DNA of 64,000 bases from Acidobacteriota bacterium. GTDB taxonomy: Bacteria; Acidobacteriota; UBA6911. Under the pieces are notes generated by a model, which was not told where the DNA came from, did not search any database, and worked only from the letters and a program-made list of their open reading frames with translations. The number at the start of each line of letters is the position of its first letter. Position 1 is the first letter of the stretch. The position numbers and the translations under genes were made by a program. Below are positions 1 to 14,558 of this stretch, piece after piece. The DNA lies in the NCBI GenBank assembly GCA_037444305.1, contig JBBIMP010000018.1, positions 1 through 64,000 on the forward strand, written 5' to 3'.

Positions 1-574
1 CCAACCCCGGATTTTGTCGCGGCATGGCGCGACAAGAATCCTTAATTTGTTGGGCAGCGTCCTGGGTGTCGCGCAAAGGAAGGTCGTGCTGGGGATGCGA
101 CTCGACCTCCAGCGATAGCCCCAGCTTATGAAGATCTTCTCTCGACTTGGGACTGACGAAGCGCCGCGCCGAGCCAAGGTACACCGCGACCGGCTTTTGC
201 TGCGCGACTAGGTTTCGGACATTCTCAAGCGTTCCGCGGCTCTTTCCGTCCCAAAGCATCAGGCCATAGGAGGCATCATTGGCCATCTGTTTGTCTTTCG
301 CGGAATAGAGTTCAAACCCACGCGCTCCGCTCGGTGGGTTGACGAGGCAAACCTTCCAGTGGCCGACGTTATTGCGAACGGATCCGGCTATCGCGTAAAC
401 GATTACTCGCTCGTAGTCCCGATCTGCCAAATGCTGCTGCAGAGCGCGATCGGCGCCATTGGCGTCGCCGACAAAGAACCATAGGCCTCGGTCAATGAGG
501 TCGTTGAGTTTAGACCTGATGCTGTCGTTGAGCCGAGCGATCCGTCGTGAACCACCGAGAAATACCGCTTCCAT
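1..574 (-). CDS. SLOG-superfamily (DprA/Smf/LOG-like Rossmann) protein. N-terminal ~190 aa; the gene runs off the window start.
   Basis: The reverse-complement ORF starts at ATG 574..572 and has no stop before position 1. Translation: MEAVFLGGSRRIARLNDSIRSKLNDLIDRGLWFFVGDANGADRALQQHLADRDYERVIVYAIAG... The GGS..(x)..VGDANGAD..(x)..VIVYA pattern is typical of SLOG/DprA-like Rossmann folds. Its ATG overlaps the stop of the upstream PRTase (ggcTGAtcATG). Confidence 0.45.
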   Translation of the reverse strand, partial: MEAVFLGGSRRIARLNDSIRSKLNDLIDRGLWFFVGDANGADRALQQHLADRDYERVIVYAIAGSVRNNVGHWKVCLVNPPSGARGFELYSAKDKQMANDASYGLMLWDGKSRGTLENVRNLVAQQKPVAVYLGSARRFVSPKSREDLHKLGLSLEVESHPQHDLPLRDTQDAAQQIKDSCRAMPRQNPGL

Positions 575-576
575 GA

Positions 577-1178
577 TCAGCCCCGAGTTTTTGTCAACGC
601 AAGGGCGAAAACCGCGGAAACGCCCCCGGATTCCTTGAGGAGACGAGCGAGTGCATTCATCGTAGCGCCGGACTGGTAGAGGTCATCGAGAAGCAAAACC
701 CTTCGGCCCTTCAACCCTTCGCCCTCGATCGCGTGCACTCCTTGAGCAATTCAACGCGCTCCGCATAGTCGGCGTTCTTGAGTTCGGGCGTTGCCTTCGT
801 CTTCCGCACGCTTGTCTTGTCCACTGGCAGATCCAGCAGCCTTCCGAGTTCATCGGCGATCTGGTATAGCGGCTGGACTGCTCGACTCTTACTGGGCGAC
901 GCGGGAACGATGATATCGATTCCGGGGTTCCAGCCACGAACGAAGTCACAGGCAGCCTGGGCAATGGGTGTGACAGTCGATTGATCACCTCGGTACTTGA
1001 GCCTGTAGAACAGCTCTCCGAGCTCCGTGCGAGTGCTCTCGAACTGGGGATGTCCGTACTCGTTGTACCCGATGAACTCACTGCTGGTGACGTGGCGATC
1101 CAGAACACGGCCATCATCCCATGTCCCATGCAACGGTCTCGGATTCAGTTGCATCTTGTCCTCAGCTACGCTGCCCAA
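577..1178 (-). pseudogene. ComF/GntX-type phosphoribosyltransferase (PRTase), split by a frameshift in a gaaggg repeat tract
   Basis: The N-terminal ORF (1178..711) contains IDIIVPASPSKSRAVQPLYQIADELGRLL, matching the ComF-type motif D-x-IVPVP...RG-FNQ. After a frame change near 700-745, the C-terminal half reads KGRRVLLLDDLYQSGATMNALARLLKESGG, the PRPP-binding loop typical of type I PRTases (VLLVDD..TG.T). The two frames overlap within the repeat gagggcgaagggttgaagggccgaagggtt. Confidence 0.6.
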
Positions 1179-1246
1179 CGGGAAGCATCAGCTGCGGCGC
1201 GCGCTTTGCGCCGTCGACTGGATGCTGTTGTTAGCCGGGCTCTCTC

Positions 1247-1459
1247 TCACAGCAGCTTCCGGAATTGCTCTGGAGTGAGCCCAGCGTCGCGGGCGATTCC
1301 ACCCATCGTCAGGGCATTCACAGGATTGTGCCTTGGGACTGTGAGAATTCTGACCCCGTCGGACATGACGACATGTTTCCCCTGACGGATGATCCGAAAG
1401 CCCGCTTTCTCAAGTGCACGAGCTGCCTCCAGGTGATTGATGCCCGGTATCTTTGGCAC
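1247..1459 (-). CDS. hicA: HicA-family mRNA interferase toxin
   Basis: 70 aa: MPKIPGINHLEAARALEKAGFRIIRQGKHVVMSDGVRILTVPRHNP... This is a YcfA/HicA-like fold with a ..GKH..h....tvP.H.. pattern, and it sits immediately downstream of hicB. Confidence 0.78.
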   Translation of the reverse strand: MPKIPGINHLEAARALEKAGFRIIRQGKHVVMSDGVRILTVPRHNPVNALTMGGIARDAGLTPEQFRKLL

Positions 1460-1462
1460 GAG

Positions 1463-1660
1463 TCAGCCCGCGACCTCGATTTCTCGGATCACAGCATCTC
1501 TCAGGAGTTCGTCGCGCGCTTCGAGATATTCCTTGATGGCCTCTTGGATGTTGGCTAGCGCCTCATCCTCAGTGGCGCCCTGGGACCAACATCCTGGGAG
1601 TCCAGGAACAGATACACTGTAGCCCTCGTCAGTCTCATGCAAAGCTATTTTATACCTCAT
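1463..1660 (-). CDS. hicB: HicB-family antitoxin (short UPF0150 form)
   Basis: 65 aa: MRYKIALHETDEGYSVSVPGLPGCWSQGATEDEALANIQEAIKEYLE. This is the classic HicB/UPF0150 signature. There is a 4-bp gap to hicA. Confidence 0.75.
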   Translation of the reverse strand: MRYKIALHETDEGYSVSVPGLPGCWSQGATEDEALANIQEAIKEYLEARDELLRDAVIREIEVAG

Positions 1661-1879
1661 GTTGCCTCTTGCCTAAAGTATACACCCGCGCCCCTCCGGC
1701 TAACGCGAGCTGCGGATCAGCGGCGGGCCGCGTAGCGGACCGGCCGCTGCATCGCGTTGTTAGCGGCCCCTTGTCATCCTACCGCACGGCCCCCAGGAAA
1801 GGTAGTAGAGTCCGCGTGATAGCTGTGGCGGGCGTATCCGGCGCTCTAGCAAGGCGTCACAGGCCTCTCCAGGGTGCCG

Positions 1880-1914: not shown

Positions 1915-4440
1915 ATGACTTTCGGGGCCTTCATTCGCGACCGTCGAGCAGCGCTCGGGATATCTCTCCGGGTCGCTGCCCAGAAGCTCGGGGTCGACGC
2001 AGCTCATCTGTCCCGTGTCGAAGCCGGTAAGGTACCCGTCTCTGAACAACTGATCCATCGCCTGGCGGGGGTTCTCGAATGCGAGGCAGACGAGCTGCTG
2101 CTCCTAGCCGGACGCCTTCCAGAATCCATCCGTGCCATGGTGGTGCAGCAGCCGTACCGCGCGACGGCTGCGCTGAGAACAATGGCCGAGATGTGCGTGG
2201 CTGAACCAGGCGTGCCCTACGGAGAGCCGCTCTTCGCCGAGCGAGGAGTGCGCGTCATCGAAGACGGCTTTCCCTTCGAGGAGATCAGCGAGATCGCTGA
2301 GGTCGAGAGCTGGCGCAAGGAGATTTACAGGCCCATCTACCACGTCCACAAGTGGTGGGCGCAGCGGTTGGGTTCCGTGTTCCGAGCGGCAATTCTCGGC
2401 GCGGCAGCCCCCAAGGGTTCATCGGTCTTGGACCTCTTCTACGAGCCGGTTCGTCTACCGGGCGTCGTGGTTTTCGACCCGTTCATGGGGAGCGGGACCA
2501 CAGTCGGCGAGGCGCGGAAGCTCGGTTGCACTGTTATCGGGCGCGACATTAACCCAGTGGCGTACCGTGCGGTTCGCGTCGCACTCGGCCCTGTGGACAG
2601 GGGAAGGGTGCACGAGCATTTCCGGAAGCTCGAATCCGGTGTCGGCAAAGAGATCAAGAAGCTGTACAGTTCGGTTGACAGTGACAGAGAGCTATGCGAC
2701 GTCCTCTACTTCTTCTGGGTTAAGGTCGTTCCGTGTCCTAAGTGCCAGGCGAAGGTCGACCTCTTCTCGAGCTACGTTTTCGCGACGCACGCGTACAAAA
2801 AGCAGAACCCGGAGGCCAAAATCATCTGTCCAGAGTGCGGCGATGTTTTCTCTGGGCGACACGACGACACCCAGGTCGCATGCCGATGTGGCGCTCGCTT
2901 CAATCCGCAAGAGGGGCCGGCCAAGCGAACCACAGCAATTTGCCGCCTGTGCGGGCACGAATTCCCGATTGCGAAGACTGCGAAAAGCGCCGGGAGGCCT
3001 CCGGATCACCGGCCCTACGCGAAGTTAGTGCTTCGGAAGGACGGAAGCAAGGAATACCTTGGGATCACGGACGGCGACCTGTCTGCGTTCATGGCCGCAA
3101 GGAACCGCCTGAGAGACTTCGATCCACCGCTTCCTAGTGTACCCATCGGCGACGGCCACAACACGCGCCAGATCCTGAACTACGGGTATCGGCACTGGCA
3201 CGAGTTGTTCAATGAGCGCCAGCTCCTGGCCCTGACGATGCTAGCAGGCGCGATTCGGGACATCCCGGAGAACTCGGCTCGGGATGCGCTCGCCGTACTC
3301 TTCTCGGGCATACTTGAGTTCAACAACATGTTCGCATCGTACAAGGGAGAAGGCACCGGCGCGGTGCGGCATATGTTCTCACACCACATCCTCAAGCCAG
3401 AGCGGACGCCCATCGAGGCGAACATCTGGGGGACGCCGCGGAGTTCGGGTGCCTTCTCGACGCTGTACGAATCCCGGTTGCTTCGCGCGCTGGATTACCG
3501 CGACGCCCCCTTCGAACTCGCGGTTGAGTACAGAGGCCCACGCAAGACAGGAAGGAAGGTAGTGGGTGTCAGCCCGCCGATCGGTGGGCCGATAATAGAG
3601 CGGTACCCGAAAGGCGGTCTTAAGCCCGGCGCTACATACCTCTCTTGCGGGGACTCGTCTGCCACGGACCTCCCCGACAAGAGCGTTGACCTCGTGATAA
3701 CGGACCCGCCTTTTTTTGACAACGTCCACTACTCTGAGCTCGCCGATTTCTTCTTCGTCTGGCAACAGCTTTACTTCGGTGACGGTTCATTCAGTGGCGC
3801 CTGTACCACCCGCCGGGACGCCGAAGTTCAGGACGTCGAAGCCGGTGCGTTCGCAGACAAGCTCGGCAAGGTCTTTGCGGAATGCCACCGTGTGCTGCGA
3901 GACGAAGGCGTCCTCGTCTTCAGCTATCACCACTCGCGCGAGGATGGGTGGGTTGCGGTCGCGCAGGCCGTTTTGGGTGCCGGCTTCAACATAGTTCAGA
4001 GCCAGCCCGTCAAGGCCGAGATGTCGGTCGCCGCTCCGAAAAGTCAGGCGAAGGAGTCTATCGACCTCGACGTACTGATCGTCTGCCGCAAACGAAAATC
4101 CGACCCGCGGCCGCGGCGTGCTGATGAGGGAGTTTTGCAACGAGCTGTCGCGAGCGCCGAGGAAAAGGTTAGACGGTTCAACAGCGTGGGCCGACATCTC
4201 TCTCGAAACGATGTGCGCGTCATTTTGCTAAGTCAGGTCCTGGTGGAACTGAGCGTGGGGAGGACGGCGAGCGAGGTGGGGGTTTCGCTCAAGGCCCTAC
4301 TGCCGAAGACCCGCAGCATCATCGAGAGGTCATGGAAGGACCAGAACGTGCGGGAACCATCGGGTCCCGTTGCGCCGCAGCCAGGGGCGGTGCAGCGTGA
4401 ATTGTGGGAAACACTGCCTACACGCGGAACGGGAGCCTAA
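1915..4440 (+). CDS. XRE-HTH::DUF1156 (COG1743) N6-adenine DNA methyltransferase with a Zn-ribbon
   Basis: 841 aa. N-terminus: GISLRVAAQKLGVDAAHLSRVEAG (XRE-type HTH). DUF1156 N-terminal signature: IEDGFPFEEISEIAEVESWRKEIYRPIYHVHKWWAQR. Motif I: VVFDPFMGSGTTVGEA. Cys clusters CPKCQ...CPECG / CRLCGHEF form the Zn-ribbon. Motif IV: DLVITDPPFFDNVHYSELADFF. Confidence 0.85.
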   Translation: MTFGAFIRDRRAALGISLRVAAQKLGVDAAHLSRVEAGKVPVSEQLIHRLAGVLECEADELLLLAGRLPESIRAMVVQQPYRATAALRTMAEMCVAEPGVPYGEPLFAERGVRVIEDGFPFEEISEIAEVESWRKEIYRPIYHVHKWWAQRLGSVFRAAILGAAAPKGSSVLDLFYEPVRLPGVVVFDPFMGSGTTVGEARKLGCTVIGRDINPVAYRAVRVALGPVDRGRVHEHFRKLESGVGKEIKKLYSSVDSDRELCDVLYFFWVKVVPCPKCQAKVDLFSSYVFATHAYKKQNPEAKIICPECGDVFSGRHDDTQVACRCGARFNPQEGPAKRTTAICRLCGHEFPIAKTAKSAGRPPDHRPYAKLVLRKDGSKEYLGITDGDLSAFMAARNRLRDFDPPLPSVPIGDGHNTRQILNYGYRHWHELFNERQLLALTMLAGAIRDIPENSARDALAVLFSGILEFNNMFASYKGEGTGAVRHMFSHHILKPERTPIEANIWGTPRSSGAFSTLYESRLLRALDYRDAPFELAVEYRGPRKTGRKVVGVSPPIGGPIIERYPKGGLKPGATYLSCGDSSATDLPDKSVDLVITDPPFFDNVHYSELADFFFVWQQLYFGDGSFSGACTTRRDAEVQDVEAGAFADKLGKVFAECHRVLRDEGVLVFSYHHSREDGWVAVAQAVLGAGFNIVQSQPVKAEMSVAAPKSQAKESIDLDVLIVCRKRKSDPRPRRADEGVLQRAVASAEEKVRRFNSVGRHLSRNDVRVILLSQVLVELSVGRTASEVGVSLKALLPKTRSIIERSWKDQNVREPSGPVAPQPGAVQRELWETLPTRGTGA

Positions 4441-4933
4441 ACCGACCGCGCGGGCGCGTCCTAGCCTCGCGATCCGGTGTGGGAAACGGGTCCACGAGCT
4501 GGGTAATGGACCAGCCCTCCGGCGCGTCGGAGCGGCGTCGATAGCAATAGAACCTTCGGGTGGTGCCTTCTGAGACGGACCGACGCAGCCTGTATGCAAG
4601 CTGCAGATCCGGCTCCTTACGCGGAACGTCCTCATCTGGGTGGATCAGGATAGGCAAGCCATCGAACTCCCGAGCACCGAGGGGGTTGGCGAAGATGAGC
4701 ATAGGTCGAGCCCGGTCGGCTCCGTCGCCATACGTCCCGAGTCCGATGCGTTTCTGGCGCTCGCCTGTGATGCTCAGGTACAGTTCAAAGTCCTCGTTCA
4801 GGGCGTTGCCATCCACCAGGCACAAGGCCGTCAGGACAACAGTCTGCGCGTCGTCGGGGGCGCACTCCAAGCAAACGAATAGGTAGAAGCCGCGGATGTC
4901 GAGGGCTGCACCCGCTGCATCATAGACGCGCAC
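4418..4933 (-). CDS. Hypothetical protein, probably the C-terminal part of a frameshifted nuclease-like gene
   Basis: 171-aa ORF that overlaps the upstream ORF 4831..5301 by about 100 bp in another frame. Convergent with, and abutting, the 3' end of the MTase gene. Confidence 0.3.
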   Translation of the reverse strand: MRVYDAAGAALDIRGFYLFVCLECAPDDAQTVVLTALCLVDGNALNEDFELYLSITGERQKRIGLGTYGDGADRARPMLIFANPLGAREFDGLPILIHPDEDVPRKEPDLQLAYRLRRSVSEGTTRRFYCYRRRSDAPEGWSITQLVDPFPTPDREARTRPRGRFRLPFRV

Positions 4934-5301
4934 ACGCCCGCAGGGGGCGTAGTGTTGTAATCGAGTCCAGAGCCTCGGGCGACACCGCCCTGCGCCGTCC
5001 GCTCCAGTTTCTTGACCTCAATGCCCACGATGCGGTTGATGTCGGTTGTTCGGTGCTTGAGGTCCATTCCTTCGCACATGCGAGGCCGGTACAGGACCAT
5101 GTCGGGGGTGATGAGCGGCCCGGTCGCCCTCGCGCACGAGATCGCTTCGATGCCTGTGAGCACTTCTGTGACAAGGTACTCGTCGAACGGATCGTCTTGG
5201 GTGTTTCGTTTGTCACGAAGTCTGAACGGTACCGGTCGTCCTGCGCTATCGAAAAACCGGTGGCGCAGTGCCAGAAAGGCGAATGTGGGGAGGTCGATCA
5301 T
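4831..5301 (-). CDS. Hypothetical PD-(D/E)xK-like protein; candidate restriction endonuclease, N-terminal part
   Basis: 156 aa containing ..TPDMVLY.. followed about 25 aa later by ..INRIVGIEVKK.. (a PD...E-x-K arrangement). Frame overlap with ORF 4418..4933 suggests a single disrupted gene. Confidence 0.3.
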   Translation of the reverse strand: MIDLPTFAFLALRHRFFDSAGRPVPFRLRDKRNTQDDPFDEYLVTEVLTGIEAISCARATGPLITPDMVLYRPRMCEGMDLKHRTTDINRIVGIEVKKLERTAQGGVARGSGLDYNTTPPAGVCASMMQRVQPSTSAASTYSFAWSAPPTTRRLLS

Positions 5302-5590
5302 GTCCTTGCCTCACTGGTTACGGGGAATGTCTCATCAGGTGCCGCTTATATTATGCGGGTCTCGATAGCTGGATAGGCCGCCAGTCGGCACCCGCTCAAA
5401 CCATCGAGAATATATCTCTCATAGCACAATGTTGTTTAAAGTCAAACGGTTATGCGGAAGCTGATGGGCGGCATATCCAGCTATGCTGCGAGTTCCGCCC
5501 GCTTAACTGGATAACAAGGGCGAAGTTTTGCTGAATCCCACTGCTCCCTTGGCGGACGGGTTCTGTATACTCCCCCTCGCCGCCACAAAC

Positions 5591-6682
5591 TCACATGCCG
5601 GTATCCAGCGGACTCCGAACCTCTCGGCCGCCACGATTCAGCACATGTGTGCAGATCATCGTCGTGCTCACGTCGCTGTGCCCTAGAAGCTCCTGAATCG
5701 TCCGGATGTCGTACCCTGCCTCCAGCAAATGCGTCGCAAAAGAATGACGCAGCGAATGACAGCTTGCCGGCTTCGCAATTCGCGCCTGGAGGGCTGCCCT
5801 GCGGACCGCTTTCTGCAATACCGACTCGTGAAGATGATGCCTGCGCTTCCTCCCCGACGAGGAATCCCAATAATGCCGGGTCGCCGGAAATACCCACTGC
5901 CAGCTCCATTCCCACGGAGCCTTGGGATACTTTCGCTCGATTGCCTGAGGCAACTCGACGCTCCCCGCCCCGCGTCGAAGATCCTCCCCATGCCTTTGGC
6001 GCACTCTTTCGATGTGCGCGGCCAGCGGTTCCGAAACTTTGCCCGGGAGAAGCGTCACCCGATCCTTGTTCCCCTTGCCGTCACGAACCGTAATTTCACT
6101 CCGGGCAAAATCCACATCCTTGATGCGCAGCCGACAGCATTCGAGCAGTCGCAAGCCGGCACCATAGAGCAGGGAGGCCATGATCCATTCCACCCCTCGC
6201 AGGTTGCCCAATAGGGCTGTTACTTCCGAGCGCGAAAGCACTACAGGCAGATGAACAGGCCGCTTCGCCCTCACGATGCCGGCGACCCACTCGAGGTCCG
6301 CCTGCAGCACCTCCCGGTAAAGAAATACCAGCGCGCATAACGCCTGGTTCTGCGTGGACGCGCTGACCCTGCCCTTGACCGCAAGATGGGTCAGAAACTG
6401 CGAGATCTCTGCCTCGCCCATCTCAGCCGGGTGCCGCTTGCCGTGAAAAAGAATGAATCGGCGAATCCAGCCGACGTATGACTTGGCCGTTCTGCGGCTG
6501 TAGCTGCGCCGCAAGATCTCGTCGCGGACACGGTCCAGCAGTTTCGGTTTTTGCGGGCAGAGAGAGACATTCTCACACACGAATGCGGCGGCCCGAGCAC
6601 AGCAGAATAGAAAATCGGCGGCAACATCTGATGGCTTCGCATCGGCGGTCACCAGAGGTTCAACGATCGATTCTTGGAGCAT
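5591..6682 (-). CDS. intI: Integron integrase IntI (tyrosine recombinase)
   Basis: Contains [39 protein letters not shown] (R-H-R-Y catalytic region). Also contains the IntI-specific additional domain [50 protein letters not shown], which aligns with IntI1 ALERKYPRAGHSWPWFWVF...[22 protein letters not shown]. The [12 protein letters not shown] box is also present. Confidence 0.9.
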
Positions 6683-7101: not shown

Positions 7102-7146
7102 TTGACGAGCTCTGTGACTCCTAGTAGCATGAGCGTGTGAGTCACA
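7102..7146 (+). promoter_or_regulatory. Promoter with a dyad operator upstream of, and overlapping, the vapB start
   Basis: TTGACG (7102-7107), a 17-nt spacer, then TAGCAT (7125-7130). The 8-bp inverted repeat TGTGACTC (7113-7120) / GAGTCACA (7139-7146) brackets the -10 and the GTG start, typical of RHH antitoxin autoregulation. Confidence 0.5.
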
Positions 7147-7364
7147 GACTGCAGGTCCTTATTCCCGAAGAATTGGATGCCCGTGTGCGCAAAGCGTCGC
7201 AGCGTTGCCGTATTTCCAAGGGGGAGTGGGTGCGACGGGCCATCGAACGCACCCTGGCCGAAGACGGGGCAACAGCCGAACCCCTCTCTCAACTGGCCTC
7301 ATTGGAGGCGCCCACGGCCGACATTGACCAGATGCTGGAGGAAATCGAAACGGGGCGCACGTGA
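7137..7364 (+). CDS. vapB: Ribbon-helix-helix (CopG/VapB-type) antitoxin
   Basis: 75 aa with a GTG start: ..HRLQVLIPEELDARVRKASQRCRISKGEWVRRAIERTL. This is an RHH beta-strand plus two helices. Its stop overlaps the vapC start (7361). Confidence 0.72.
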   Translation: MSHRLQVLIPEELDARVRKASQRCRISKGEWVRRAIERTLAEDGATAEPLSQLASLEAPTADIDQMLEEIETGRT

Positions 7365-7765
7365 GGGTTTTCATCGACTCCAACATTCCGATGTATGTCG
7401 CCGGCCGCGAACATCCTCACCGAGAACCGGCGCGCCGCTTATTGGAGAAGGTCCGCGCCGCCGAGCTGGAAGCATGCACCAGCACGGAAGTTCTGCAGGA
7501 AATCCTTTACCGCTACACTGCCTTGCAACGGCTGGACCTGGCACGACGGGTGTATGAGCTCTTCGTGCTGATTTGTCCGGTGATCTATCCCGTAACCCTG
7601 GCCGATACCGACCGCGCGAAGCAACTGGTATGCGGCGGAGGCAGCATCGGGGTTCGCGATGCGATTCACGCCGCCGTCATGCTGAACAACGACGTCCACA
7701 ACGTTGCGACGTTCGATGCAGCCTTCGACCTGATCCCGGGAGTGCGCCGCCTGCCTCTGGATTGA
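7361..7765 (+). CDS. vapC: PIN-domain toxin VapC
   Basis: 134 aa beginning MRVFIDSNIPMY (PIN N-terminal acidic residue), with ..DAIHAAVMLNNDVHNVATFDAAFD (C-terminal conserved Asp). Confidence 0.82.
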   Translation: MRVFIDSNIPMYVAGREHPHREPARRLLEKVRAAELEACTSTEVLQEILYRYTALQRLDLARRVYELFVLICPVIYPVTLADTDRAKQLVCGGGSIGVRDAIHAAVMLNNDVHNVATFDAAFDLIPGVRRLPLD

Positions 7766-7864: not shown

Positions 7865-8917
7865 TCAGCGGCCTGCCGCCGCGAGCTGGCCGCAGGCGGC
7901 GGCGATGTCGTGGCCGCCGCTGTAACGGCGGTGCGTGGCCAGCCCCGCCCGGTGCAGAACTTCGCGGAATGCGGATTCCGTCTCGCGAGCCGTCCGCCGG
8001 AATTCGTCCCGCCCGCCGGCGTCGGCGTTGTAGGGGACGATGCTGATCCGCGGCCGCACGCCCGTGGCGCGCACGAAATCCCGGCCGAGCCGCGCCAGCG
8101 CCGCAGCGTGCTCCGGGCTGTCGTTGACCCCTTCGAGAAGCGTCACGGCCCACATCGGCGCGATGCGCGTTTTGCGCGAATGATCGGCAACGGCGGCCAT
8201 TACCTGTTCGAGCGGGTGGGCGCGGTCGATCGGCATCAATCGGCGGCGGACCTCAGGCAGTGCGCTGCCGATCGAAATGCCAAGACGAACCTTGGGCGCC
8301 TCTGCGGCCAGCTGGCGAATGCCCTCGGGCAATCCCACGGTGCAGACTGTGATGGCTTTGGCGTTTACTGCCATCGTGCTCGGATTGCAGGCGACGGCGA
8401 TCGCCTGGAGCACTGCATCGAGATTGGCCAGCGGTTCCCCCATCCCCTGGAAGACAATCCCATGAATGCGTTCGCCGCGGCGGGGGTCCAGTCCGCCTCG
8501 GACAATCCGCAACTGTTCGATGATTTCCCACGCTTCCAGGTTCCGGTGCAGCCCAAGCCTGCCGGTGGCGCAGAAGGAACAACCGAGCCCGCAGCCGGCC
8601 TGCGAACTGACGCACACGGAGAAGCGGCCGGGACGGTCGAGCGGAATGCGGACGGCCTCCACGGTGCCGCCCCCCGGAACTTCCAGGATATATTTGATGA
8701 ACGGATCGACCCCACTCCGTTGATTGGCGCACACCGTCAGCTTCGGGAGCGATCCCGCAGCGGCGGCCGCGTCAATGACCGATTGCTTTACGCGCCGGAC
8801 AAACTCCAGGCCGCCTCCGCGGTGGATGCCGCTCGCTATTCTCCGGGCGTCGGTCAGGGAAATGCCGGGAATGATTTGAACCAGTTCATCCGGAGTCAGT
8901 GCCTGCAGAGCAATCAT
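7865..8917 (-). CDS. rlmN: Radical-SAM 23S rRNA/tRNA m2A methyltransferase RlmN
   Basis: 350 aa with the radical-SAM motif CSFCATG, plus GMGEPLAN and ..ISIVPYN.. regions, giving RlmN/Cfr family topology. Confidence 0.85.
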   Translation of the reverse strand: MIALQALTPDELVQIIPGISLTDARRIASGIHRGGGLEFVRRVKQSVIDAAAAAGSLPKLTVCANQRSGVDPFIKYILEVPGGGTVEAVRIPLDRPGRFSVCVSSQAGCGLGCSFCATGRLGLHRNLEAWEIIEQLRIVRGGLDPRRGERIHGIVFQGMGEPLANLDAVLQAIAVACNPSTMAVNAKAITVCTVGLPEGIRQLAAEAPKVRLGISIGSALPEVRRRLMPIDRAHPLEQVMAAVADHSRKTRIAPMWAVTLLEGVNDSPEHAAALARLGRDFVRATGVRPRISIVPYNADAGGRDEFRRTARETESAFREVLHRAGLATHRRYSGGHDIAAACGQLAAAGR

Positions 8918-11222: not shown

Positions 11223-14200
11223 TCAGGGTGCGGCGGAGTGGCGCGCATGGCAGAGGGTGTTGACCAGCCGAAGCTCCTCGACCGTCCGGCATGGCGTTGC
11301 CGGCAGGCGAGGACTTGCCACCAGCAGGGTGAGACATCGCGCGCGGGAAATGGCCACGTTCAACCGGTTCCTGCTGAAGAGGAATTCAATATCCCGGGGC
11401 AGATCCTCTGCGCTCGAGGTCGTCATCGAGACGATAACCACCTCCGCCTCCTGCCCCTGGAATTTGTCGACGGTGCCGACACGGGCGCCGGCCGGCAGAA
11501 CCGACCGCAGGCGGTTGACCTGCACATTGTAGGGGGCCACGACGAGAATGTTCTCGGGCCGCATGGGGTGCACGGCGCCGTCCGTGTCGGTGAAGGCCTG
11601 CAGCAGCAGGTTGGAGTAGACCTCGCGCACTACCTGAGCCTCCTCCTCGGATTTCTGCGAGCAGCCGGCGTGATCCACCCCGATGAAGCGGATTCCTGTC
11701 GGGCGCAACTCGGGGTGCGCGCCCCGCTTGAGGAGGAGTCTGCGATTCTGGTTCTTTGCCTCCGGGTGGAGCCGCCCTTCATACACGGCCTCGGATATGA
11801 AACGGCAGACATCGGCGTGCATGCGCCACGTGGTGGGCAGAAAAATCCCCCGCTCGGGCGGGATCGTCGCCGCGTCGCGGAGCAGGTACTCGAGAACAGA
11901 CATCCCCGACTCGCCGGGATGCACGCCCTGGATCGGCTGGCCGAGCTGCATCTGGTCTCCAACCAGCACGATGTTTTTGGCGCTGGTTCCCATAGCCACG
12001 AGGTTTGCCAGCGACACCTGGCCCGCCTCGTCCACGAACAGGCAGTCGAGCCTGCCGTCCATGTCCGGGTGCGCAAACAGCCAAGCCGAGCCGGCGAACA
12101 GGTCGGCGGAGAAATCGAATCTTTCGGTGCGGGTTTCGTTGGCAATCTGCCGCCCTGCGAAGAACGATTCGCTGTTCATTTCGGTCGCCTTCTTGATGCC
12201 GCGAAACGTGAGCCCGGTTTCGTCGGCCCGCCTCTCCACCGCGTGCAGCAGATTGTGGATCGCCTTGTGGGAGTTCGAGGCGACGCCGACCTTCTTTCCC
12301 TGCCGAATCAGCTCCACGATGATGCGGGATGAGACATATGTTTTGCCGGCGCCGGGCGGCCCCTGGATGAGCAGGCAGCTGTTCCTGAGATTGGCGACGG
12401 CGCGGGTGGACTCGATGACAAGGTCCTCCTTCCCGCTGATGATGGGGAGACCGTGCTTGAGGCCCTTGATTGCAGGCAGTTGCCGGAGCAGCAGCGATCG
12501 CGCGGCCGGATACTTCCCATCGCCCGCCGCCATGGAATCGGCGAAGCGGCCCAGGGCATCGTGCAGCACCCTCGTATCTATGGGCCCGGAGGGTATTAGG
12601 GAAAGTTCCGCCGGCAGCGATCCGGCCGAAGCGCCCCGTTTCAACTTCAGGGTGCCTCCTTCCAGGTCCAGCGCCACGATTGTGCCGGCAGGTTCCAACG
12701 TTGCTGCAACCAGACAGCGGTTGCCCGGTCCGAGTTTTGAGTCCTGCGGCGGAAAGCGATACCCGGCGACGATCGAGCGCTTCTCCGTCCGCTGTGGAAT
12801 GCCCGGATCCAGGCCGAGTGCGCCGATGCACTCGTAGTCCTCCACCAGGTCCTCGGGCGTGCTCTCCTGGCGGTCGAACATGGCCCACCATGCCGGCTTG
12901 GCCTCCCGGCGGTGAAAACCGAGCAGGTGCACGACGGTTTCGCGCGCAACCTTCTCCTCCGGAGGGCTGCCCTTCATGAGTTTCTTCCGGCGCGCGGCGA
13001 TTTCCTCCTCCGCCTGGGTTCGGGCAGCGGCTTTTTCCTCGTCCTGGTCCTCCGGCGCCTCGAACCAGGGGGTGCCGTCCGGCCGCAGATCGAGCAGCCA
13101 CTCGCGAAGCAGGTGCGTGGAACGGCAGTCTGCCCGGTTGTAATCCCGGATCTGCTCCAGCAGGCTGTCGTCGTGCGTCAATCGCCACTGCTCGTAAACC
13201 ACGATGCTGTCGCCGGCGCTTGTCACCTCGCCCTCTCGCTTTTTCATGTAGAAAACCTCGAGGTCCTTCAGCGAATAACCCCGCGCGGAAGCCTGGAGGC
13301 CTTCGCGTACGACCTTGTAGAGGTCGACCAGCTTGCGGGCCCGCAGCAGGTGGTCGACTTCCGCCTCGCGCGTGCCGTAGCGCGAGGCCAGCCGTTTGAG
13401 CGCGTTCTCCTCGTAGTGGTTGTAGTGATAGATGTGCGCGCCCGGATGCGCCTCGAGATGCTCCATGAAAAAGTCGACTGCCTGCCGGAACGCCGCCATC
13501 TCCTCGTCGTGGTTGTGGGCCCAGAATTCGCGGAAGACCGGCTTCCGGCTCGCAAACCGGTAAACGCCGAACAGGTATTCCAGGCCCTCGCCGAAGAAAG
13601 GATCCCCTTCGATGTCGAAGAACAGGTCGGCGGCATCGGGTCTGGGCAGCCTTTCGAAGCCTCTGCCCTCCTTGGGCGGGAGGAGCTGCCAGGAGTCCTG
13701 GCCGGTGTCGCGCCTGTTCGTCTGCAGGCGCGCCTGGGTGCGCAGTCGCGTCAGGCTCTCCTGGCCGATCCCGTCAATGCGCCGCGAATCGGGCGTGGAG
13801 GCCAGTGTCCGGGCTGTGGCGATGCCGGCCTCTATCAGCCTGCGGATCTGCGACTGGCGGATGTTGGCGACGAGCGTCAGGTGGTCGTCGTCCTCCCACC
13901 GGCGGCAACAAAGATCGCGCCACCGGCAGAGGTCGCAGTAGCGGCAGCGGCGCGGGTATGAATATTCTGGGGGCGATGCGGCGAATTCCTCGAAGCGGCG
14001 CTGAGCCTCCAGGTGGTAGTGGCGGAAGTCGGCGAAAAGGAAAGCCGCCTCGCTGCCGTCGCCCAGCACCAGGTGCATCGAGCGGGGTGTGAGCCCCTGC
14101 ATCGCCTCCAGCATGTCGGAGTAGCAGCAGAGCTGGATTACGCGGGCGGCCGAAGGCGCTCGGGCCAGCTTTGTGTCGACCGCTTCGTAGCTGAATCTCC

Positions 14201-14558
14201 CAAGCTTGGAAGGGGTGTCGACACGCCGGAGGAAGTCGGCGTAGCCGAACCACGGGTCCTTTTGCAGCGCGGCCTGGTAGATGACGTCGGCGCCTGCGGC
14301 CATTGCCTTGCGGGTCTGGGCGGTCCTTTCTGCCAGGGAGCCATCCGTTGGGATTTCGACCGCCTCCAGGTCTTCGGACAGCAGCTTTGCGAGGTAGGCT
14401 TTTTCGTGTTCCAGCCCTTTCCTGCGGAGGAGTTCGATGCCGGCGTCCTCCCCGGCCTGAGGAAGAGGTTGCTCGCGATGGCGAAGGTCCAGCCATGCGC
14501 AGTGCTCACACTCGAGGAAGCTCAGCAGGGCCGAGGGCGCGTGCATGTGCGGCATCAT
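11223..14558 (-). CDS. Cas4/RecB-like PD-(D/E)xK nuclease (Fe-S) + RNase H-like domain + SF1 (Upf1/Dna2-like) helicase fusion; TM0106 family, Nhi-like
   Basis: 1111 aa. N-terminal Cys cluster CEHCAW...CRYCDLCRWRDLCC (Cas4-type 4Fe-4S). Middle region ..LFFDIEGDPF..EYLFG (RNase H-like, TM0106/YprB). Helicase motifs: LIQGPPGAGKTY (Walker A), LFVDEAGQ (Walker B), VLVGDQMQL, and DKFQGQEAEVVIVS..NRLNVAISRAR (motifs V and VI). Confidence 0.85.
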   Translation of the reverse strand: MMPHMHAPSALLSFLECEHCAWLDLRHREQPLPQAGEDAGIELLRRKGLEHEKAYLAKLLSEDLEAVEIPTDGSLAERTAQTRKAMAAGADVIYQAALQKDPWFGYADFLRRVDTPSKLGRFSYEAVDTKLARAPSAARVIQLCCYSDMLEAMQGLTPRSMHLVLGDGSEAAFLFADFRHYHLEAQRRFEEFAASPPEYSYPRRCRYCDLCRWRDLCCRRWEDDDHLTLVANIRQSQIRRLIEAGIATARTLASTPDSRRIDGIGQESLTRLRTQARLQTNRRDTGQDSWQLLPPKEGRGFERLPRPDAADLFFDIEGDPFFGEGLEYLFGVYRFASRKPVFREFWAHNHDEEMAAFRQAVDFFMEHLEAHPGAHIYHYNHYEENALKRLASRYGTREAEVDHLLRARKLVDLYKVVREGLQASARGYSLKDLEVFYMKKREGEVTSAGDSIVVYEQWRLTHDDSLLEQIRDYNRADCRSTHLLREWLLDLRPDGTPWFEAPEDQDEEKAAARTQAEEEIAARRKKLMKGSPPEEKVARETVVHLLGFHRREAKPAWWAMFDRQESTPEDLVEDYECIGALGLDPGIPQRTEKRSIVAGYRFPPQDSKLGPGNRCLVAATLEPAGTIVALDLEGGTLKLKRGASAGSLPAELSLIPSGPIDTRVLHDALGRFADSMAAGDGKYPAARSLLLRQLPAIKGLKHGLPIISGKEDLVIESTRAVANLRNSCLLIQGPPGAGKTYVSSRIIVELIRQGKKVGVASNSHKAIHNLLHAVERRADETGLTFRGIKKATEMNSESFFAGRQIANETRTERFDFSADLFAGSAWLFAHPDMDGRLDCLFVDEAGQVSLANLVAMGTSAKNIVLVGDQMQLGQPIQGVHPGESGMSVLEYLLRDAATIPPERGIFLPTTWRMHADVCRFISEAVYEGRLHPEAKNQNRRLLLKRGAHPELRPTGIRFIGVDHAGCSQKSEEEAQVVREVYSNLLLQAFTDTDGAVHPMRPENILVVAPYNVQVNRLRSVLPAGARVGTVDKFQGQEAEVVIVSMTTSSAEDLPRDIEFLFSRNRLNVAISRARCLTLLVASPRLPATPCRTVEELRLVNTLCHARHSAAP

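Follow-up and report, generated by a model that had tools for sequence, protein, structure and literature searches.

Defence against phage by the toxin-antitoxin systems ShosTA and PsyrTA has been validated, but the action of their antitoxins is disputed, with DNA repair, RecA recruitment, and intrinsic instability all having been proposed. The phosphoribosyltransferase (PRTase) domain of ShosT is the toxic part of the protein, a D331A/D332A loop mutant is non-toxic, and E. coli ShosT carries an additional pyrophosphatase domain (PMC11961720). Both ShosTA papers report no direct binding between toxin and antitoxin and implicate DNA binding and RecA recruitment (PMC11961720; PMC12961424), while PsyrTA/RqlHI consists of a RecQ-like helicase-PRTase toxin and a DprA-like partner (PMC4670107). 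A YpsA-clade SLOG/PRTase gene pair has also been noted computationally (Burroughs 2015; Brzozowski 2019; PMC6459960), and overproduction of YpsA inhibits growth in Bacillus (PMC6459960). Streamlined defence systems in integron cassettes are known in general from prior work. Here we analyzed a window of 64,000 nucleotides (positions 1 to 64,000 of contig JBBIMP010000018.1, assembly GCA_037444305.1) from an Acidobacteriota bacterium of the lineage UBA6911, at the start of which a PRTase gene and a SLOG-fold partner gene lie together on one integron gene cassette. This cassette is probably a streamlined PRTase-toxin/SLOG-antitoxin module related to ShosTA and PsyrTA, in which the toxin gene has been inactivated by a 1-nt deletion.

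Both genes lie on the minus strand according to their open reading frame (ORF) translations and, judging from how they are spaced, they are a tightly coupled operon. The spacing is kept over 68 distinct loci, with an ATGA overlap in 29 and a 2-nt spacer in 24, and the two-gene operon put forward in the original prediction, which had been made from the letters of this stretch, is thus upheld. The overlap of stop and start codons that it described for the window is not present, as the two codons stand 2 nt apart (TGAtcATG). With 30.6 bits, the PRTase exceeds the Pfam cutoff for Pribosyltran (26.3), and its best structural match is the competence protein ComF, but it reaches only 45.5 bits against TIGR00201 (ComF; cutoff 233.55). 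A four-Cys zinc finger is lacking, as the whole protein contains a single Cys. In fold the PRTase resembles ComF, as the earlier label of a ComF-type PRTase had it, but it is not a competence ComF. A small beta-sheet makes up the N-terminal 42 residues of the PRTase, and a second Rossmann domain is absent. Among the PADLOC models, the PRTase matches PsyrT (2e-13) and ShosT (6e-9), and the match to the PsyrT model is confined to its positions 538-685 of 689. Within the loop that binds phosphoribosyl pyrophosphate (PRPP), D157, G163, A164, and T165 are invariant across 73 sequences and D158 is kept in at least 90% of them. As D331 and D332 of ShosT are equivalent to D157 and D158 here, this would support the PRTase as the toxin.

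The SLOG gene encodes 191 amino acids inside the window. Since its homologues are about 205 amino acids long, only a short tail, encoded by the attC recombination site, is missing, and the idea that the partner gene might carry an effector beyond the window can be set aside. The structure model is confident at residues 1-154 (positions 574 to 113; predicted local distance difference test, pLDDT, >90) and disordered beyond, and the domain is basic, with an isoelectric point of 9.8. Fold comparison gives a SLOG-type Rossmannoid fold with glycine-rich ligand loops, in agreement with the SLOG-like Rossmann partner originally proposed; the nearest fold is that of YpsA, with DprA among the fold matches. 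A PDB sequence-profile search with the SLOG family returned only noise. The family comprises 2038 cluster representatives, and about 670 close and 2000 distant cluster-level relatives are spread over many phyla; no match to the SLOG domain was found in phage genomes. Many polar residues are invariant in the family, and this conservation would fit a ligand-binding or LOG-like hydrolytic role. Some members are fused to Abi_alpha, HEPN_AbiU2 (weak), DUF488-N3a, or NADAR domains (P0466, P0497, P0491, P0484), which are possibly gene-call fusions and which suggest sensor-effector architectures in other conflict systems. In most relatives, an attC of about 130 nt overlaps the last ~30 SLOG codons (for example L094:1110-1260, and also L082 and L066), and it is thus the recombination site that codes for the disordered, basic tail at the C-terminus (...SGRSQPRKRRSASARGRS). 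Where the attC is a different one, the tail differs too or the protein is 170 amino acids long.

Positions 5-1178 of the window constitute a single integron gene cassette. At its upstream edge, homology starts exactly at GTTRRRY in more than 20 distinct metagenome and genome loci. Relatives share a leader of about 35 nt before the PRTase start, beginning GTTGGGC, GTTAGGC, or GTTGAGC, and 5' of this leader lie mutually unrelated attC palindromes, many of which begin GCCTAAC. The original prediction had proposed that the same two-gene cassette be sought elsewhere, and it is present in these more than 20 unrelated arrays. At the downstream edge, homology passes the SLOG stop codon to ...GCGGCGAGCC-GTT and then ceases. 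The attC R'' motif GCCCAAC, which lies within the SLOG tail codons, is kept in all relatives, and the sequence diverges beyond it; as the window attC after R'' differs from that of most relatives and is shorter, the tail of the window SLOG protein is divergent. The L'' of this attC has one additional C, which corresponds to an extrahelical G on the bottom strand, and an additional C is present at two attC sites. Two further palindromes, at 1173-1236 and 1698-1765, lie between genes, and their ends are of the RYYYAAC and GTTRRRY type. A strict regex-plus-folding attC scanner found only the first of these, missing the second, in which the first R'' base is C, and also the site that is cut by the window edge. 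The longer 5' arm expected from attC orientation is seen at two sites and not at 1698-1765. Because the single-strand folding z-scores of these short attCs are weak (-0.4 to -2.1), the attC calls rest on comparative breakpoints and not on folding energy.

Other features of the cassette also bear on its mobility. Its GC content is 57.7% and its GC content at third codon positions (GC3) is 0.64-0.67, versus a GC3 of 0.83-0.89 for native genes, and outside the array the rest of the window appears chromosomal. A promoter scan within the PRTase/SLOG cassette found nothing convincing. On two metagenome contigs (L068 and L101), the cassette lies directly behind intI fragments in the same orientation; the fragments are truncated and adjoin the cassette via a common GGAAACCAYATA sequence. 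No intI was found within 8 kb at any of 59 genome loci, those copies being located far inside arrays or in attC clusters that have no integrase. The contig identified as the source, CAZIEJ010000014.1 (GCA_964538715.1; 75,269 bp), stops at the same base as the window, inside the attC, so that both end within the R' core at window positions 1-5, and an independent Logan contig (L104) also begins and ends within attC hairpins. The assembly thus breaks at cassette boundaries, and the array probably extends past the contig.

The PRTase gene is broken in the window. Its ORF begins MQLNPRPLHG and runs for 147 codons to a TGA at 713-711; the 147-amino-acid product lacks the PRPP loop and is recorded exactly in two assemblies. 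A second frame, from 738 to the TGA at 579-577, encodes VHAIEGEGLKGRRVLLLDDLYQSGATMNALARLLKESGGVSAVFALALTKTRG, the PRPP-binding half. Joined, the two frames give 192 amino acids, which is the length of almost all of 235 homologues, and the joined protein aligns to them without gaps. Among intact relatives, the one nearest in DNA sequence is on a 420-kb contig of a gammaproteobacterial metagenome-assembled genome (L001; 93% nucleotide identity), and the comparison with it contains a sole gap in about 600 columns, a single nucleotide at ~739/740 (CTCAAGG-AGTGCAC in the window versus CTAAAGGAAGCGCAC). The lesion is thus the loss of one A from GGAAG, where the ancestral reading was L-K-E-V-H, and the invariant His141 and all codons 3' of it are read in the other frame. 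The frame break noticed originally is therefore real as an interruption of the PRTase frame, although it is not located in the GAAGGG repeat to which it had been assigned.

Evidence for a toxin-antidote module with the PRTase as the toxin comes, besides the PsyrT and ShosT model matches and the tight spacing of the two genes, from the relatives of the two proteins, from the pattern of their loss, and from the neighbouring genes. One PRTase relative is 50% identical over its full length (L096; E 7e-60) and another 44% (L098), and each is followed by a DprA-like protein of 311-315 amino acids that matches PsyrA (4e-51), ShosA (8.5e-43), and Pfam DNA_processg_A (2.6e-43). As these partners are DprA-like, the partner of a PRTase from this family can be a genuine ShosA-type protein or the short SLOG protein. 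Both loci are on marine-sediment-type contigs (L096:2375-3916 and L098:2631-4176), and the combination of a 193-amino-acid PRTase with a DprA-like protein amounts to a short ShosTA without the pyrophosphatase domain. Relatives of the SLOG domain (39-46% identity) also occur in 101 plasmid records. In the two that were inspected, a SLOG protein of 281-286 amino acids lies directly behind a PRTase gene, and its C-terminus matches the HigA-type helix-turn-helix (HTH) model TIGR02684, "addiction module antidote", at 83-91 bits (cutoff 53.7); an NCBIfam scan found this HTH to be absent from the window SLOG protein. Among loci found with the SLOG protein as seed, about 10 of 55 combine an intact SLOG gene and a PRTase that is truncated, interrupted by a stop, or absent; a damaged copy or remnant is retained at L008, L019, L020, L022, and L055 and none at L013. 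The PRTase-seeded set added three further loci of this kind (L083, L089, and L094), and an intact PRTase with a broken SLOG gene was found at none of about 33 loci in it, the three that were flagged being DprA-type partners or cases of alignment divergence. The neighbours are other toxin-antidote or defence units, namely hicBA, a methylase with a nuclease-like gene, and a vapBC pair past the integrase. The part in biological conflict suggested originally is consistent with these toxin-antitoxin and restriction-modification neighbours and with the PsyrT and ShosT model matches.

How closely the cassette resembles each described system differs from one system to the next. It shares with ShosTA the two-gene arrangement of toxin and then antitoxin and the PRPP-binding PRTase domain (Millman 2022; PMC11961720; PMC12961424), and its PRTase relatives at 44-50% identity are paired with genuine ShosA/PsyrA-like proteins. 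In contrast to ShosTA, the partner here is a bare 150-amino-acid SLOG domain that lacks a SAM domain, finds no match among the ShosA, PsyrA, or DprA models, and has a fold nearer to that of YpsA, and the pair is carried on an integron cassette. As in PsyrTA/RqlHI, the partner of the PRTase is a SLOG-superfamily protein, but the 192-codon cassette PRTase is without a helicase domain, and in sequence its partner does not resemble DprA. The cassette pair may be the YpsA-clade SLOG/PRTase pair of Burroughs and Aravind, which was a computational report without function, polarity, or mobile context; the Pfam models for YpsA are not reached by the cassette SLOG protein. The plasmid pairs, known from RefSeq annotation, share the PRTase family, the SLOG domain (39-46% identical), and the overlapping gene order with the cassette, and they differ in having the C-terminal TIGR02684 HTH where the cassette version has its attC-encoded tail. 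ComF/ComFC differs in its four-Cys zinc finger and its competence locus, whereas the cassette PRTase lacks the former and is in a mobile cassette. By analogy, the pair would work like ShosTA or PsyrTA, but with a partner that does not resemble their antitoxins by these measures and without their extra toxin domains.

Several points weigh against reading the cassette as a ShosTA/PsyrTA-related toxin-antitoxin module with a dead toxin. The PRTase of 192 amino acids has no N-terminal pyrophosphatase domain, unlike the 424-amino-acid ShosT, and a PDB sequence search with the PRTase profile did not match the E. coli ShosT sequence. Scans of the SLOG protein against Pfam, PADLOC, and NCBIfam gave no match, including to the DprA, LOG, and YpsA models. 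When the SLOG profile was compared with that of the DprA-like partner using hhalign, the GSR and GxAxGxD loops aligned, but the E-value of 0.17 is not significant, and for this reason we do not call the SLOG protein DprA-like. The role of the PRTase as putative toxin and of the SLOG protein as putative antidote in this short-SLOG subfamily would follow from analogy, and the polarity could in principle be reversed, with the SLOG protein as the toxic partner, given that its nearest fold, YpsA, is growth-inhibitory. The asymmetry in gene loss comes from two differently seeded searches and from hand-curated classes. The evidence on the deletion is the consensus sequence of a metagenome-assembled genome; the matching Logan contig was assembled independently with different software, and possibly from the same reads.

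We weighed two other explanations of the broken frame. A programmed or phase-variable switch, acting through slippage in the GAAGGG repeat or through ribosomal frameshifting, would restore the PRTase in a subpopulation, and slipped-strand phase variation at this repeat had been raised in the original prediction. The motif (GAAGGG x3, GAAGGGTTGAAGGGCCGAAGGG at 720-699) is indeed non-random (0 of 100 shuffles), has an 8-nt period, and lies near the break, and toxin genes are plausible on/off targets. However, the lesion lies in non-repetitive sequence, 13-20 nt away on the 5' side of the repeat, the out-of-frame TGA is contained in the repeat, and Tandem Repeats Finder reported no array there, the motif being under its threshold. 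Phase variation is unsupported because the repeat aligns gap-free and GAAGGG occurs at the equivalent place in 0 of 30 distinct relatives; no length variation in it was found among the relatives compared. A phase-variable contingency locus was rejected for these reasons, and so was programmed ribosomal frameshifting, as the sequence at the lesion has no slippery heptamer; the PRTase is in a single frame in all relatives. We give a switch of either kind almost no chance of being correct. A sequencing or assembly error, by which the PRTase would be intact in the organism and the cassette functional, is quite unlikely in our judgement. Such an error would be compatible with a deletion known only from a consensus sequence and with a Logan contig possibly built from the same reads, and each of the two frameshifts in the array removes a single base from a 2-nt run (AA or TT), as is typical of errors. 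Nevertheless, 1701 nt of the Logan assembly of SRR11582151, deletion included, are 100% identical to the sequence here, so that two assemblies from different software do not differ by a single base. Both indels also hit the two killer genes of the 5.5-kb array, whereas a crude GC3 scan, which is suggestive only, revealed no obvious breaks of frame across about 57 kb of native genes. The second of these killer genes is the nuclease-like gene, convergent with the methylase gene, in which a 1-nt deletion produces two overlapping ORFs (PPCGRVRV to PPAG/VRV). Its relatives are single proteins of 294 amino acids (86% identity over 100% of the joined query) that have no Pfam or PADLOC match, and the gene probably encodes the nuclease of a unit resembling a restriction-modification system. 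Disruption of the PRTase with the SLOG gene kept recurs independently in other genomes, and the integrase bears a substitution and not an indel, with a Cys (codon 5651-5653) at the position of the catalytic Tyr (TTMICTHV versus TTQIYTHV in VchIntIA 2a3v), and has probably lost its recombinase activity. We regard the deletion as probably real rather than an error, and the two killer-gene deletions, the Cys integrase, the native genes without obvious breaks, and the identical Logan assembly together suggest a frozen, decaying array from which killer genes have been lost.

Two further explanations concern what the pair does. It could belong to a nucleotide-signalling conflict system, in which the PRTase would make a signal nucleotide, the SLOG protein would sense or process it, and a separate effector would act. 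The SLOG relatives fused to Abi_alpha, NADAR, DUF488, and (weakly) HEPN_AbiU2 would agree with this, as would a ligand pocket formed by the many invariant polar SLOG residues. We nonetheless consider it unlikely, since the cassette holds two genes only and no effector, the window SLOG protein is a bare 150-amino-acid domain with an attC-encoded tail, the loss pattern and the antidote-HTH fusion fit toxin-antitoxin logic, and the characterized ShosTA and PsyrTA behave as toxin-antitoxin pairs. A housekeeping function, either as a ComF/DprA-like pair for DNA uptake or as enzymes of nucleotide salvage, is highly improbable despite the ComF and DprA structural matches of the two proteins: the PRTase is far under the ComF cutoff and has no zinc-finger cysteines, the SLOG protein matches no DprA or LOG model, and the pair is sporadic and mobile, occurs in integron arrays and plasmids, and has a foreign composition. 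Neither of the two findings that had been named in advance as contrary to a conflict role, a zinc-finger ComF and a housekeeping LOG/DprA in conserved context, was encountered.

The sequence comparisons show the gene structures, the folds, the place of the indel, the edges of the cassette, and its spread over loci. Toxicity, the polarity of toxin and antidote, and the biochemical mechanism are points that we infer by analogy with the described systems, and a biological origin of the deletion is likewise a conclusion that we draw as probable. As a toxin-antitoxin module, the cassette would be promoterless and would encode a two-gene toxin-antidote unit of the abortive-infection type. An intact PRTase would bind PRPP via its VLLLDDLYQSGAT loop and poison the cell, either by consuming PRPP or by making an aberrant phosphoribosylated product. 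The translationally coupled SLOG protein, a minimal basic Rossmann domain, would counteract the PRTase toxin, probably without sequestering it, and might do so by acting on DNA like ShosA or by binding or degrading a toxic nucleotide. Since the lost A at ~739/740 truncates the PRTase ahead of the PRPP loop, the toxin of the window copy would be dead and only the antidote gene intact. We also consider, as a tentative and rather doubtful proposal, that the SLOG protein neutralizes at the small-molecule level, by LOG-like phosphoribohydrolase activity or by acting as a sponge that takes up the toxic phosphoribosylated product, and not through DNA binding or RecA recruitment. Three partner types occur with the one PRTase family, namely the bare SLOG domain, the SLOG-HTH fusion, and the DprA-like protein. 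If the small-molecule proposal were true, the antidote activity of the whole ShosTA/PsyrTA class would sit in the SLOG pocket, which would help to identify the real product of the toxin. It is also a possibility that the disordered antidote tail encoded by attC serves as a built-in degron.

The coordinates of the cassette and of the other features of the array are collected in Table 1. The hicBA genes and DNA methylase that had been described as adjacent were both recovered, with Pfam scores of 33.6 bits for HicA_toxin and 44.6 bits for HicB_lk_antitox, and with the methylase being an HTH-fused N6/N4 DNA methylase. The integrase matches TIGR02249 at 457 bits (cutoff 265) and lies 4.4 kb from the PRTase/SLOG cassette. 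It is transcribed along with the cassettes, which lie past its 3' end, an "inverted integrase" and not the usual divergent arrangement. A 120-nt imperfect hairpin (5365-5484; DNA fold z-scores of -5.9 and -4.4 on the two strands) without clear AAC/GTT cores lies between the stop codon of the integrase and the first gene of the cassettes; it could belong to attI, be a long attC, or be an element unrelated to both, and GTTAAGC at 5506-5500 is a candidate attI crossover. On the far side of the integrase, a VapBC-like pair (7137-7765, plus strand) consists of a PIN-domain toxin (7361-7765) and a small upstream gene, and no attC was found next to it. Further along, a gene at 11223-14558 on the minus strand encodes a protein of 1111 amino acids with RNase_H_2 (RecB-like) and superfamily-1 helicase (AAA_11/AAA_12) domains, which may be a defence gene. 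On the L001 contig, two near-identical segments of about 170 nt (L001:7940-8110 and 8330-8510) lie upstream of the cassette cluster.

Table 1. Features of the integron array in the 64,000-nt window, in window coordinates.
Feature	Position	Strand	Boundaries and remarks
Integron gene cassette, complete (PRTase and SLOG genes)	5..1178	-	Crossovers G/TT at 1179/1178 and 5/4
ComF-like PRTase gene, putative toxin, pseudogene here	577..1154	-	ATG 1154-1152; true stop TGA 579-577
SLOG-fold partner gene, putative antitoxin, intact	1..574	-	ATG 574-572; ORF open at window/contig edge
Frameshift site	736..743	-	AAGGAAG minus one A gives AAGGAG
Premature TGA of the shifted frame	711..713	-	ORF translation
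GAAGGG x3, 8-nt spacing, codes EGLKGRR	699..720	-	Shuffle test; not the frameshift site
PRPP-binding loop codons VLLLDDLYQSGAT	661..699	-	Out of frame with the N-terminal part
attC of the PRTase/SLOG cassette	1..55	-	R'' GCCCAAC 55-49, L'' 41-28, L' 21-9, R' GTTGG 5-1
attC of the upstream hicBA cassette	1173..1236	-	R'' GGCTAAC 1236-1230, R' GTTGGGC 1179-1173
hicBA toxin-antitoxin cassette	1179..1703	-	hicB 1463-1660, hicA 1247-1459
attC-like site closing the preceding methylase/nuclease unit	1698..1765	-	Palindrome with RYYYAAC and GTTRRRY-type ends
Nuclease-like partner gene of the methylase, frameshifted	4418-5301	-	Break near 4927-4947
Integron integrase	5591..6682	-	TIGR02249; same direction as the cassettes

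The window copy of the module is inactive, and it illustrates how stored modules of this kind would decay, with the killer genes breaking first and the protectors being kept. It also exemplifies clearly how streamlined modules for defence or toxin-antidote function are stored in integron arrays. As the same toxin family is found here with a bare SLOG domain of 150 amino acids, the cassette would offer a minimal system for asking what the antidote does.

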